From NCBI GenBank assembly GCA_964534625.1, contig CAZHRF010000009.1, positions 1 to 64,000 of the forward strand: a stretch of DNA of 64,000 nt. The letters run 5' to 3'. Each line of letters starts with the position of its first letter. Position 1 is the stretch's first letter. The DNA comes from an uncultured archaeon (GTDB lineage: Archaea > Asgardarchaeota > Heimdallarchaeia > Heimdallarchaeales > Heimdallarchaeaceae). Both the position numbers and the translations under genes were made by a program. Under the pieces are notes generated by a model. That model did not search any database, was not told where the DNA came from, and saw only the letters and a list, made by a program, of their open reading frames with translations. Below, one piece after another: positions 20,211 to 25,872 of the stretch.

Positions 20211-22112
20211 TTATAAACTCCTTTTTTTACGTATTTGGGCAGCTATACCTGAGGTCATTTTATTCATATCACAACCAGCAACAACAGCTGTACCCGTAGC
20301 TAAGACAAGATTATCTTTAGTGATCAAAATCTCATCTAAAGGTCGAATACGAGGGTCAGCCTTGACAATACCAACAGCAAAAATGCTACTGCCTCGGATA
20401 TTTGTGGTAGCAAATTCCATCTTTGCATAGGTTAAATCAATAATCTTCTGTGCGTGAGTAGGATCAAGTGTAAGAAAACCATCAGCATAACGTAAAGTAG
20501 CAATCTGTTCATTGTCAAGAAAAATTTGTAAATCGCGAGGAAACCTACCTTTAATGATAGTATCAGCAGGAAAGAGAATATCACCAACACCTTTTCCAAA
20601 TTGATGATTGGCTATGGTACGTAAACGTATAATCATATCAGAGTAAATGCGGCGTTCAGGCGTATAAGAACGGATGACGGAAGTAAGGGTTGAAGTAAGA
20701 AAATCTAACGAGTCATAACTTGTTGGATGACTATCAGGAGAAGTATGGATGATTTCCCAATCACGTTGTTGCTTAATTGAATTAAGAACATCAGTATAAC
20801 CAGAACCATGGGTGTGATTGATAATAGTAAGGTCAGAAGGGTACTTATCAAGAACAGAGAGAAGGAGATCAGATGTAAGAGAAATCTCTTCAGAACACCA
20901 ATCCCCAGAAACAGGAATGTCATAGAAACGACTAGGATAAAGATCTTCTAATTCACGAGGAACGACAGAAAGAGGAGAGGTGATAATGATCTCAGAAAGT
21001 AAAGCACGATGAGATTTAACTCCTTTACGTAAAGCCCGAATAAAACGGCGATGGGAAAAAGATAGAGAATATGGTTTACGCGAAGAGCAAGGAAAAAGAA
21101 TAACAATATGAGCAAAAGGATCAGGAGTGAAGAAATCACGAATACGAGAACGAAATTCGGTTATACTAGGCCGATAGATAGATTCGTTACCAATACATTT
21201 TACAGGGGCGGAAGTAAGCAAAGGAGTACGGTTACGTATATACGAACCATAGGAGGAATCGAAATGCTTCAAAGCAGCTGCAAACGTAACAGAATTGTGA
21301 ATATCTTGTTCAACTAATGTACGAAGAGTGCCTTCTTCAAGAGCAAAATAGATACGAGAAATAGCATTTTGGAGGATGAAATTGTTGTGAGAGAAAAGAT
21401 TAGGAGGATTAGAAGAACAATGAGGACAATAACAAGGAGGATGCGAATCTAAAGGATAATACCTATCTAAAGTGAGAAAATAACCAGAAGAAGGAGAAAG
21501 ATAATAAGCAAAAGAATTATCGAAAAAATCAATACCTGAATAAACAAGAAAAGAAAAATAACTAGGGGGAATAGGACCAGGAAGAAAAAGGGCAATATCA
21601 GGAGAGAGACGTTGACGGAGAGTAAAAAGACTTTGAGAAAGTTTTCGTTGATTAAAAAGGAGAGAATGAAAACCAGAAAGAAGGAAAAAAGAACAATCAG
21701 AATCTAAAACGGGATCAATAAGGGGAGAATCAATAAAATCAATAGGGAGAGTGAAAATATGCTGAAAAAGTTTAGAATGAGAAAGAAACTGGTCAATATA
21801 ACTTTCAAAGTCGGGTTTGCGGAGATCATAAGGAGTGGGAGCGGGATAAAAAGGCTGAGACGAAAGAAGAAAAGATGAAGAAAGAGATTTGGACTCTTTA
21901 TTAGGAGGAAAAAACCAGTGAAGTGTGGGGGGAGAAGAAAAATCTTCACAAGAGAGAGATGGAGGGGTGGAGAGAGAAAAATAACCAGAAAATCCGTGGG
22001 GAGAAGCGGGAGGTTCAATAGATAAAAGACCAGGAGATAAAGAATAATTGGAATTAGTTTCTGATAAAATACGAGCAAAGGCTTGTTGGTAATGTGGTTG
22101 GAAGTAACGCAA
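20211..22112 (-). CDS. arcS: Archaeosine synthase subunit alpha (TGT-like + DUF5591 + PUA); probable TTG start at 22112
   Basis: GIDFFD, GTLRTLVE, PCSSRKPYS.S.SH, TSPLSVVPRELE, YDIPVSGDW, C-terminal PUA domain; GTGA SD before the TTG. Confidence 0.88.
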   Translation of the reverse strand: MRYFQPHYQQAFARILSETNSNYSLSPGLLSIEPPASPHGFSGYFSLSTPPSLSCEDFSSPPTLHWFFPPNKESKSLSSSFLLSSQPFYPAPTPYDLRKPDFESYIDQFLSHSKLFQHIFTLPIDFIDSPLIDPVLDSDCSFFLLSGFHSLLFNQRKLSQSLFTLRQRLSPDIALFLPGPIPPSYFSFLVYSGIDFFDNSFAYYLSPSSGYFLTLDRYYPLDSHPPCYCPHCSSNPPNLFSHNNFILQNAISRIYFALEEGTLRTLVEQDIHNSVTFAAALKHFDSSYGSYIRNRTPLLTSAPVKCIGNESIYRPSITEFRSRIRDFFTPDPFAHIVILFPCSSRKPYSLSFSHRRFIRALRKGVKSHRALLSEIIITSPLSVVPRELEDLYPSRFYDIPVSGDWCSEEISLTSDLLLSVLDKYPSDLTIINHTHGSGYTDVLNSIKQQRDWEIIHTSPDSHPTSYDSLDFLTSTLTSVIRSYTPERRIYSDMIIRLRTIANHQFGKGVGDILFPADTIIKGRFPRDLQIFLDNEQIATLRYADGFLTLDPTHAQKIIDLTYAKMEFATTNIRGSSIFAVGIVKADPRIRPLDEILITKDNLVLATGTAVVAGCDMNKMTSGIAAQIRKKRSL

Positions 22113-22219
22113 GGTAATCACTAACTGAATAAGTACATAACATAAAAGGAGAATTAATAAAAAGAATGTGGTAAGAAAGAAATAAGGGCATAAAGGTAGA
22201 ATGTACAAGAGTAAGGAAT

Positions 22220-22340
22220 ATGAACTACCACCGCCTGAAGGTAGATGCTTTCCTGCTTCATAGAAGTTACCTCAATAATCTGAGGTCTTACCTCTTCTTC
22301 ACAGCGTCGTCTATAGTTCCCGTCGTCCCGACGGTACATA
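22220..22340 (-). ncRNA. TnpB omega/reRNA-like scaffold (copy A)
   Basis: ACCGTCGGGACGACGGGAAC...CCTCA-TGAGG hairpin...GAAGCAGGAA, then right-end hairpin and TTCAT: the typical tnpB 3'/right-end layout. Confidence 0.65.
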
Positions 22341-22449
22341 GGTATTTTACACACATGTTATTGAATTTGCATCGGAAGATCTCAATACCCTTATCTGGGT
22401 AGGTACAGTATAATAAACATCATCGTCGTTTAATGTCTATCCCTATTTT

Positions 22450-23833: not shown

Positions 23834-24465
23834 AAGGTACTTTAAGTCATTTTATTCTTAAATCTGTATATATTAATTCTCTTCATTCTATCTGTTCTAC
23901 CGTTGACACTCTTTCTTGTCAACTCTCTTTAAATGTAGATATTGTCCAATCTCATTTAGATTCTTTACTCGACGATAAACTCTTATCTTGTTCTCAAGAA
24001 AATAAGTATAGTGTAACTTCTTTAGGTCGAAACCAATTTACTGTTGTTTTAACTACTGGCACATTTGATATTCTTCACCGTGGTCATTTATTTATTTTAA
24101 AACAATCTCGGCTTTTAGGTGATGTTCTTGTTGTTATTGTTACTCCTGATAAGAATGTTGAACGACAAAAAGGTCGAACTCCAGCAAAGCAAGAAAGTGA
24201 GCGCGTATATATCCTTAACCATATAAATGAAGTTGATGCTGCTATTCTTGGTCATGAAAGTGATTTTATCCGTCCTGTCACACAGATCAGACCTGAAATA
24301 ATTGCCCTTGGTTATGATCAAAAGGAAGATATTGATCATTGGTATTCCATTCTTGAAAAAAATGATCTTTCTCATGTTAAAATTATCAGGCTTATGAAAT
24401 ACGTACCTGGCAAGTCTACTACTAAAATCTTTCAGCAGATTATGAAGCGTAAAAAGAAACTTTAA
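23830..24465 (+). CDS. ribL: FAD synthetase (cytidylyltransferase family) with N-terminal wHTH-like extension
   Basis: GTFDILHRGH, LGYDQ, STTKI; ATGA overlap with ribK. Confidence 0.85.
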   Translation: MKGTLSHFILKSVYINSLHSICSTVDTLSCQLSLNVDIVQSHLDSLLDDKLLSCSQENKYSVTSLGRNQFTVVLTTGTFDILHRGHLFILKQSRLLGDVLVVIVTPDKNVERQKGRTPAKQESERVYILNHINEVDAAILGHESDFIRPVTQIRPEIIALGYDQKEDIDHWYSILEKNDLSHVKIIRLMKYVPGKSTTKIFQQIMKRKKKL

Positions 24466-24504
24466 TAGTAAGTTTGATATTCTCTTTTTGTTATTTTTCT
24501 TAGT

Positions 24505-25872
24505 ATGTATATAGAAAACACAGCCCAATTACGCTCCTTGGCTAGAAATCCACAAGAGAAGATGATATTAACCCGTCTCCTTTCTTTGATGGAAAAAGCT
24601 TTAGATTTTGCTTCACCCGCTAATTTTCTGTCACAATCACTTACGTTAAATAATACTCTTCTTCAAGTAAATAACACCACCTTCGATCTTAGTACTTGTG
24701 ATACGTTTCATTTAATTGCGTTTGGTAAAGCTTCACAAAAAATGACTGAATGGGTTCTTTCTTCCCTTCCTATTAACTTTGATTCAGTTCTCATTTCATC
24801 TCCTGAAGAAAAAAATGATTACATTCAAAATCTAGATAATTGCGAATTTTTCCGCGCTGGTCATCCTCTTCCTAATTGTGAAAGTGTTGCAGCTGCTGAA
24901 TCTGCTCTTTGTTTACTTTCTTCTTTGTCAAAAGACGATTTTTGTCTTCTTTTAATCTCTGGAGGGGGTTCGGCATTATTTGATGCTCCTGATCATAATA
25001 TTGCTTTTTCTGATTATTCTCAAGTTCTTACAGCATTACTTTCCTCTGGTGCATCAATCCATTCTATAAATACTGTAAGAAAACATTTCTCTAAAGTTAA
25101 AGGTGGAAAACTTGCTCAAGCCACGGATGCTACTTTGCTTTCTTTAGTTATCTCTGATGTAATTGGAGATGATCTCTCTTCCATAGCTTCTGGTCCGACT
25201 GTTCCTGATCTTTCTACCTGGGAGGATTGTTTTGCTGTATTTACAAGATATGATCTTCAAAATATTTTACCCATTTCAGTTCGATCTGTCCTAGAGAGGG
25301 GTCTGTCTGGTGAAATTATTGATACTCCATCAGACAAATCAGCTTTTTGTCACACAAATACTTTGATCATTGGTTCTAACACTGATGTTTTAAACAGCTT
25401 ACAGTCTTACATTGAAGAGTCTTCTCCGTGTTTTATTTATGATTCCCAATTGAAGGGAGAGGCGGCAAGAGTAGGTGAGGGACTTGCTTTTGATTTATCT
25501 TCGTATGCAAAATATAATAGTTCTTCTTTTCTCCTTTATGGTGGTGAGACAACCGTTTCTTTACCTTCATCATCTTGTGGAAAAGGGGGAAGAAATCAAG
25601 AATTGGCACTATCTTTTTCCCTTAATTTAAAATCTGCTGATTACTCAATATATCTTCTGGCTTTTGGAACCGATGGTATTGATGGTAACTCAAAAGCTGC
25701 AGGAGGCTTAGTTGGCCCTTTTACGATTGATGGTACTGAAAAAGAACATAATGCCTTAGAATCATTAAAAAAACATGATTCTAATACTTTCTTTAAACAT
25801 TTTGGCGGAGAGGTTGTAACCGGAGGTACAGGCACAAATGTTATGGATCTAGGAATATTATTCATAGTTTGA
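24505..25872 (+). CDS. Glycerate 2-kinase (MOFRL family)
   Basis: GKAS, AGHPLP, ISGGGSAL, RKHFSKVKGG, SDVIGD, GGETTV, GGRNQE, GTDGIDG, TGTNVMD. Confidence 0.95.
   Translation: MYIENTAQLRSLARNPQEKMILTRLLSLMEKALDFASPANFLSQSLTLNNTLLQVNNTTFDLSTCDTFHLIAFGKASQKMTEWVLSSLPINFDSVLISSPEEKNDYIQNLDNCEFFRAGHPLPNCESVAAAESALCLLSSLSKDDFCLLLISGGGSALFDAPDHNIAFSDYSQVLTALLSSGASIHSINTVRKHFSKVKGGKLAQATDATLLSLVISDVIGDDLSSIASGPTVPDLSTWEDCFAVFTRYDLQNILPISVRSVLERGLSGEIIDTPSDKSAFCHTNTLIIGSNTDVLNSLQSYIEESSPCFIYDSQLKGEAARVGEGLAFDLSSYAKYNSSSFLLYGGETTVSLPSSSCGKGGRNQELALSFSLNLKSADYSIYLLAFGTDGIDGNSKAAGGLVGPFTIDGTEKEHNALESLKKHDSNTFFKHFGGEVVTGGTGTNVMDLGILFIV

Follow-up and report, generated by a model that had tools for sequence, protein, structure and literature searches.

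Mirror-symmetric purine/pyrimidine skew around a tRNA-Lys(UUU) gene of a Heimdallarchaeaceae archaeon, with recombination or repair hotspots as its tentative source

Point-centred switches of strand composition are known from several systems. Mammalian meiotic hotspots reportedly (Smagulova et al. 2011) carry a kilobase-scale flip from purine to pyrimidine where recombination starts; this flip at the start site and a conversion bias acting like selection are what they would share with the locus described here, in which the skew is far stronger, proteins are reshaped, the anchors are stable-RNA genes and the organism is an archaeon without meiosis. As for the skew inversions at origins (bacterial and archaeal oriC, human N-domain borders and CpG islands; PMC2817419), they too are point-centred, mirror-symmetric, strand-based and independent of gene direction, and the CpG-island asymmetry also lies in transcription-associated loci; origin skews extend over hundreds of kb and are of the G/C or keto, transition type, whereas the present one decays over ~3 kb, is of the purine/pyrimidine, transversion type, occurs at no fewer than 20 sites per genome and is absent at the ORB-bearing origin. 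GRINS are duplicated regions longer than 500 bp that match a paralog at >80% identity, mostly with a G+T/C+A skew (PMC8256042); intense local skew, recoded proteins and a link to gene conversion are common ground, but here the genes are apparently single-copy housekeeping genes and the purine/pyrimidine skew decays smoothly, in mirror fashion, from an anchor. In the paralog search, with ribK alone among the skewed genes, one match was found in the genome, and a 384-bp element is the repeated part; the skew is intense, but G goes with A, the minority pattern among GRINS. Recombination-driven replication in T. kodakarensis and origin-less Haloferax (PMC5663688) resembles the present case in that an oriC is present and replichore skew is not; that work did not report local foci of skew or start sites that were preferred. 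Finally, skew goes unmentioned both in a survey of the Asgard replisome (PMC12680538) and in the paper on circular genomes (PMC8813620), and the literature search found no paper describing mirror skew around tRNA genes.

The window comprises the first 64,000 nucleotides of contig CAZHRF010000009.1 (assembly GCA_964534625.1). Its relevant features are given below, with genes taken from our own longest-ORF calls rather than from curated annotation.

18207-22219, no strand: left arm, + strand purine-rich, decaying outward (four-fold-site composition)
19131-20207, minus strand: RaSEA radical SAM gene, also skewed (TIGR01210, over cut-off)
20211-22112, minus strand: arcS, encoding the alpha subunit of archaeosine synthase and probably starting with TTG at 22112 (NF040592, E 5e-109, under the curated cut-off)
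22220-22603, no strand: miniature element, 384 bp, non-coding, probably of IS200/IS605 type, with ends as in broken TnpB-like ORFs
22669-22745, minus strand: tRNA-Lys(UUU) gene, switch anchor (ARAGORN, Rfam)
22746-28642, no strand: right arm, + strand pyrimidine-rich, decaying outward (four-fold-site composition)
22884-22948, no strand: imperfect inverted repeat upstream of ribK, locus-specific
23123-23833, plus strand: ribK, winged-helix and CTP-dependent riboflavin kinase (domain matches)
23830-24465, plus strand: cytidylyltransferase-family gene, probably the archaeal FAD synthase ribL (family from its match, exact function from context)
24505-25872, plus strand: MOFRL-family glycerate 2-kinase, where the gradient tails off (family match, composition)
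25873-26523, minus strand: translin-family gene, directed toward the tRNA (family match, purine-rich coding strand)
39233-39335, plus strand: intron-containing tRNA-Lys(CUU), where the window has its other switch, again with this polarity (z 6.6)

Regarding the pattern itself, the preliminary description had seen a + strand rich in purines to the left and in pyrimidines to the right, and both overall composition and four-fold sites confirm it. At four-fold sites the + strand purine fraction is 0.87 in arcS, 0.67 in RaSEA, 0.64 at 18207-19121 and 0.51 farther out on the left; on the right it is 0.10 in ribK, 0.15 in ribL, 0.32 in the glycerate kinase, 0.29 in the translin-like gene and 0.37 in a prenyl synthase. 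On the outward-running strand, pyrimidines make up 85-90% of these sites in arcS, ribK and ribL, against 53% for the genome, whichever way the gene runs, and the skew dies away over ~5 kb. In terms of coding-strand T/A at these sites, the values are 0.69/0.10 for arcS, 0.77/0.07 for ribK and 0.72/0.14 for ribL, then 0.55/0.25 for the glycerate kinase and 0.51/0.26 for RaSEA, compared with 0.41/0.37 genome-wide. The translin-like gene, on the minus strand, has a purine-rich coding strand (A 0.66, T 0.18), and the skew is therefore a property of the strand and not of the gene. The jump at tRNA-Lys(UUU) has z = 15.9, the top value genome-wide and the strongest among 18 switches with z>6, where z takes sites as independent and is meant for ranking. 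The skew peaks at synonymous sites instead of vanishing there, and orthologs from other genera are near neutral and do not share the composition; the long-lived, local, bidirectional footprint proposed earlier is supported.

The same description put the switch at 22915, the centre of the inverted repeat, and this placement did not hold: pyrimidines already prevail on the + strand directly beyond the tRNA (38% purines at 22746-22870), a 45-bp purine patch follows at 22871-22915, and 22220-22603 is a mobile insert. No finer placement of the switch than 22220-22915, an interval surrounding the tRNA gene, is possible, and the skew is anchored in this gene region rather than in the repeat. Rfam gave the tRNA as its sole match over 20-26 kb, and a 97-aa ORF at 22881-23174, with no Pfam match, is probably spurious.

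That a single canonical origin or terminus, the inverted repeat, the miniature element or a foreign island should cause the skew is highly improbable, and this idea has largely been refuted already by the tests. The repeat is non-random (fold z -4.6, matched in 2/300 local shuffles) and is possibly an operator; it is rejected as the skew centre, being unconserved in G001/G005 and not common to other switches (none of 14 switch spacers had one). The miniature element has 11 full copies genome-wide, with a hairpin at 22577-22594 in the present one, and its ends also flank broken TnpB-like ORFs on contigs C30, C7 and C16, recognised by eye and not by HMM; three of the full copies lie at switches, but the other eight have none, and the element is rejected as the cause. 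A foreign island is rejected on account of the conserved synteny, the order arcS-tRNA-ribK-ribL-glyK being inherited across the family. As for a canonical origin, a perfect ORB core without G-string does occur at one switch (C1:177503, z 8.4), but there are many switches per genome, and no ORB-like match was found at 21.5-24 kb of the window. The genome's own oriC, with ORB and G-string, is at C1:3322 near cdc6; the cdc6 genes are solely at C1:7698, C1:58055 and C2:136493, none of them at the tRNA-Lys(UUU) locus, and the ORB/G-string origin near cdc6 has no such switch in five genomes. The ORB/cdc6 origin, located elsewhere and switch-negative, is thus rejected.

Across this genome, z>4 occurs at 11 of 44 tRNAs and at ~2% of other spacers; in the relative G004 a switch is present at 19/37 tRNAs versus 3/241, and G007 has switches at the same isotypes, while relatives other than these two barely show skew. 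By group, genera g1, g3 and g5 have such foci, and genus g4 and family f3 are nearly devoid of them. tRNA-Lys(UUU) anchors switches in G002, G004 and G007, and more weakly in G014/G017 and G001/G005. Further sites are the SRP RNA (z 7.4), the 16S rRNA in G004 (flanks 0.92 and 0.05-0.28) and protein genes (actin, rps30e and a pilin-like locus); some of the switch sites are likely highly expressed genes. The minor C34 tRNAs have no switch (p 0.009, 0.001 and 0.006 in three genomes); neither do tRNA-Ser-UGA, tRNA-Cys and several major tRNAs of this genome, nor RNase P RNA in G004. Rfam on 20 non-tRNA sites gave nothing besides the SRP RNA. By eye, neither a tRNA sequence motif nor intron presence divides strong from weak tRNAs. 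The pattern is absent from sister genera that share this gene order, and no closer relatives were found among metagenome contigs.

The shape of the skew bears on its cause. Amplitude is 0.52 upstream and 0.53 downstream of the anchors; the decay length is ~2.9 kb in G004, and the skew is zero by ~6 kb and then flat over 15-60 kb between sites. Where local divergence is matched, the R>Y transversion proxies, four in number, are all up 1.15-1.7x and the four Y>R ones all down 0.53-0.7x, these proxies being unpolarised (no outgroup), with stationarity assumed and a fork-polarity model fitting equally; transitions and total difference are unchanged, and T/C and A/G shift by just +0.2 and -0.4 log units. 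The miniature element told little as a neutral mutation reporter, with 18 Y>R and 17 R>Y changes against a consensus reference that may not be the ancestor. Divergence near the sites is not raised, so that a hypermutation hotspot is rejected, and with it the hypermutable ssDNA hotspot first suggested is disfavoured.

Transcription-linked mutation or repair, by which bidirectional outward transcription or R-loops from the strong promoter would shield the template strand while its partner lies exposed, is rather unlikely. The sites do follow probable expression, the exponential-like decay is similar to read-through, and genes that point outward carry slightly more skew than those that point inward; equal amplitudes on the two sides, however, require antisense transcription matching read-through, most ribosomal-protein genes are near neutral, and the C>T/A>G transitions that usually serve as a signature do not appear. 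Archaeal terminators are U-rich, which suits weak selection for pyrimidine-rich outward strands, for example to halt pervasive transcription from strong promoters or to shape chromatin, as does a ~2.3-fold fixation bias that fits the rate proxies. Yet the shift is independent of neighbouring bases, including neighbouring T, whence T-tract selection is rejected, and C gains nearly as much as T; moreover, conserved proteins such as ArcS are degraded in a graded manner and the sister genera lack the pattern, making such selection improbable.

Another reading is ORB-independent local initiation of replication, primed by R-loops or D-loops where transcription is strong, with transversion errors that differ between the leading and lagging strands; it is unlikely but deserves more weight. 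It accounts for the mirror symmetry irrespective of gene direction and for the roughly conserved complementary-pair sums, which fork polarity predicts; the lack of replichore-scale skew in G004 (20 samples round the genome) and of any switch at oriC fits an oriC that is seldom used, as in T. kodakarensis (PMC5663688), and human CpG islands have been read similarly (PMC2817419). On the other hand, plateaus or linear ramps would be expected of efficient origins and not a skew gone by ~6 kb, the site has neither ORB nor cdc6, and initiation alone leaves the divergence dips between species unexplained.

These dips were found in the relatives G004 and G007, a single species pair that does not include the present genome. 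With transitions alone counted, strong tRNA loci have a lower synonymous divergence than weak ones (p 0.004); at strong tRNAs it is 0.118 near versus 0.172 at 4-9 kb (16/21 sides, p 0.001), and at weak ones 0.216 versus 0.212, without dip. At some strong sites it falls to 0.02-0.05, as recent gene flow would leave; the low-divergence loci are clustered at 2.02-2.28 Mb and non-independent. Several strong sites have no dip, and a lower mutation rate or codon selection could add to the dips.

A repair or recombination hotspot, one of the options first offered, stays the best fit, and we tentatively favour, at less than even confidence, hotspots of recombination or repair where transcription is strong, combined with strand-biased conversion. 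Strongly transcribed loci (major tRNAs, rRNA, SRP RNA and some abundant-protein genes), with expression judged by tRNA isotype alone, would be repeated starts of homologous recombination or recombinational repair, and transcription level would select the sites. Heteroduplex or repair tracts would reach ~3 kb to each side, and pyrimidine:pyrimidine and purine:purine mispairs would be resolved unequally; this biased gene conversion with strand polarity would fix T/C for A/G on the outward-running strand without raising the overall substitution rate. Local initiation merges with this explanation if replication is recombination-driven. As for the biased enzyme, EndoMS/NucS is a speculative candidate: T. 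kodakarensis EndoMS cuts T/T and T/C and hardly A/A (PMC4838380), and NucS is encoded in this genome, G004 and G007, as well as in genus g4, which has little skew. With G/T as its best substrate, a role for NucS would entail a strong transition bias, whereas the T/C and A/G shifts are small.

It is also possible, if doubtful, that Heimdallarchaeaceae do not rely on the ORB origin and concentrate homologous recombination, perhaps together with DNA synthesis primed by it, at genes under strong transcription such as those for tRNA and rRNA, leaving a polar gene-conversion footprint that the sequence by itself reveals. If true, this would be a prokaryotic parallel to eukaryotic promoter-associated recombination hotspots or dispersed origins, in close relatives of eukaryotes. 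Asgard replication and recombination are essentially unmapped, and the foci offer a sequence-only map of ~20-30 exact sites per genome for direct tests of initiation or recombination.

Near tRNAs the bias is also strong enough to alter which amino acids conserved genes encode; this may mislead calls of horizontal transfer, and such lineage-specific composition can enter Asgard phylogenomics. Among the S/L/F/P-rich proteins noted earlier, with the ArcS N-terminus as the extreme, ArcS has a shift that is real and graded: compared with seven orthologs, K+E+N+D is 0.13 versus 0.20-0.24 and S+L+F+P 0.55 versus 0.34-0.42 in the N-terminal third, and both the loss and the gain increase toward the tRNA. 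However, the first 32 residues of the long arcS ORF lie upstream of the start in most orthologs and are probably untranslated. Similarly, the reported use of CGT for Arg is borne out in arcS and in ribK (0.65 of Arg each) and in part in ribL (0.30), but not in the glycerate kinase (0.10, genome ~0.16); in RaSEA, CGN makes up 0.92 of the Arg codons.

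Regarding the composition around the tRNA-Lys(UUU) gene, the AT and GC skews along the window were +0.41 and +0.40 at 21-22 kb, and -0.27 and -0.12 at 23-24 kb. Four-fold sites, read on the coding strand of our own ORF calls (2638 genes), had T/A fractions of 0.69/0.10 in arcS, 0.77/0.07 in ribK, 0.72/0.14 in ribL, 0.55/0.25 in the glycerate kinase gene and 0.51/0.26 in the RaSEA gene, against a genome-wide baseline of 0.41/0.37; both measures bear out the strand inversion of the preliminary description, whose gene identities also stand. The translin-like gene, oriented toward the site, has the reversed coding bias (A 0.66 at four-fold sites), and therefore the rule is a pyrimidine-rich strand going 5'-3' away from the site. 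The S/L/F/P-richness claimed for ArcS holds against seven orthologs, with K/E/N/D lowered and S/L/F/P raised, most near the tRNA; of the long arcS ORF, the initial 32 residues are probably not protein. A preference for CGT as the Arg codon was confirmed in arcS and ribK, and not in the glycerate kinase gene.

The features bearing on the switch, the point where the + strand turns from purine-rich to pyrimidine-rich, are:
Within spacer 22113-23122: purine-rich leader
22220-22603: 384-bp multicopy non-coding element
Within spacer 22113-23122: tRNA-Lys(UUU) gene (ARAGORN)
Within spacer 22113-23122: pyrimidine-rich stretch, then a 45-bp purine patch and inverted repeat
37700-40700: second purine-to-pyrimidine switch, with an intron-containing tRNA-Lys(CUU) gene at 39233-39335
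59735-60120: the 384-bp element (miniature, IS200/IS605 type) in a second full copy, with no skew switch around it (z, the jump strength used for ranking, 1.0)

The inverted repeat upstream of ribK, earlier taken as the centre of the switch, is non-random; it is absent from the equivalent spacer of two relatives (G001, G005) and from 14 other switch spacers, and loses that role. The 384-bp element lies at switches in three of 11 copies (p 0.003, post hoc) and the other eight have none. In the relatives G002 and G007, the switch coincides with a tRNA-Lys(UUU) gene rich in introns, which was read by eye and escaped ARAGORN; these three results together establish the tRNA locus as the anchor. The two genes (L031:6890-7015 in G002, L022:2280-2425 in G007) appear to hold several non-canonical introns, and the latter was also undetected by the Rfam tRNA search. 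The ends of the 384-bp element also border broken TnpB-like ORFs, and within its family the copy at 22220-22603 has diverged furthest, with 68 changes from the consensus against 11-33 in the others.

The window covers positions 1-64000 of C9 in the source genome, G000, and its site is the biggest jump there; jumps at z>6 in G000 comprised 18 purine-to-pyrimidine and five of opposite sign, the latter flanking strong ones of the former kind; z exceeded 4 at 11 of 44 tRNAs vs about 2% of other spacers. Further sites included the SRP RNA gene, actin, rps30e, a pilin-like gene, ornithine carbamoyltransferase and rpl6. The tRNA-Lys(CUU) switch has trm5/an unknown gene on one side and an SDR gene on the other. 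Two sugar-nucleotide gene clusters (C47:18125-21567 and C13:27800-31100) have one-sided extreme skews, their coding strands nearly T-free at four-fold sites, and are possibly foreign genes or lie beside a switch past the contig end.

As for relatives, G004 had sharp switches at 19/37 tRNAs vs 3/241 control spacers, and its sister G007 repeated them; the 16S rRNA was a strong site and the 23S a moderate one. Switches were rare elsewhere (1/30 tRNAs in G017, 1/23 in G001, 0/12 in G024). In genus g4, arcS-ribK orthologs were near neutral, without the shared composition named earlier as grounds for refutation; the strength of the trait is therefore lineage-specific. Minor C34-anticodon tRNAs had no switch in any of the three positive genomes. 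G004 agrees with the described circular Heimdallarchaeum genomes (PMC8813620), including an insertion between 16S rRNA and tRNA-Arg(UCU) (L065-L066, 1,930,500-1,938,600); this is a mosaic of a large neutral internal gene (0.47) and a homing-endonuclease-like gene with 95% pyrimidine at four-fold sites, which suggests parts of different residence time. In G004, the greater part of the tRNA genes is crowded into one fifth of the chromosome (1.77-2.33 Mb) along with both rRNAs and two cdc6 genes, and parts of 2.05-2.15 Mb are nearly identical to G007 (1-5% divergence). The phenomenon is real and recurrent, and the literature searched contained no description of tRNA-anchored skew switches for Asgard archaea; the nearest published cases are asymmetries at origins and CpG islands, plus GRINS, the known skewed, duplicated regions.

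A replication origin had been among the explanations offered. In G000 (C1:3322), G004, G007, G012 and G017, a conserved origin recognition box (ORB) with G-string, accompanied by repeated short elements, is located near cdc6, and in all five this site has no purine-to-pyrimidine switch; the window site has neither ORB nor cdc6, and G004 had no replichore skew. These results speak against a canonical origin at the window site. ORB cores without G-string coincide with a switch at C1:177503 and a weak one at C12:16129, and their G004/G007 counterparts have no switch. Around the former (C1:175000-178500; z 8.4, no RNA gene found), unrelated genes and the perfect ORB core split a ribosomal-protein operon between rpl6 and rpl32e. 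The probable canonical oriC (C1:2958-3777), at a distance of 3.5 kb from cdc6, combines its G-string ORB with numerous short TTCACA/TGTGAA repeats; it is kept in four relatives and adjoins the PolD large subunit gene in G004 and G007.

The skew has equal amplitude upstream and downstream of tRNAs, a symmetry that transcription-linked repair, an unlikely cause, hardly explains; the shift does not depend on adjacent bases, which is hard to reconcile with selection, less likely again. Divergence between G004 and G007 is reduced near strong tRNAs (those with a marked switch), mostly via near-identical blocks: divergence was <4% in 40% of the 500-bp windows lying within 1 kb, vs 4% of those at weak tRNAs. 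By locus, transition-only synonymous divergence was lower in 15 strong clusters than in eight weak ones (p 0.004), with a local dip on 16/21 sides of strong tRNAs (p 0.001) and none at weak tRNAs. At matched local divergence, the four outward-strand proxies for purine-to-pyrimidine change all rose 1.15-1.7 times and the four for pyrimidine-to-purine change all fell to 0.53-0.7, with no alteration in transitions or total difference; these proxies, unpolarised and in part a restatement of composition, argue against extra mutagenesis. Local, ORB-independent replication starts fit this substitution spectrum as well as recombination does, but not the short decay of the skew (~3 kb), and are rather doubtful.

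Tentatively favoured is recurrent recombination or recombinational repair that would begin at strongly transcribed loci, mispairs in tracts a few kb long being resolved with a strand-polar bias. This reading covers symmetry, tract-like decay, rate neutrality and divergence dips. EndoMS/NucS, which cleaves T/T and T/C and barely A/A (PMC4838380), is encoded in G000 and would act in the right direction for A/T; it is a candidate for the biased enzyme, since it over-predicts the transition bias and is also encoded in genera without foci.
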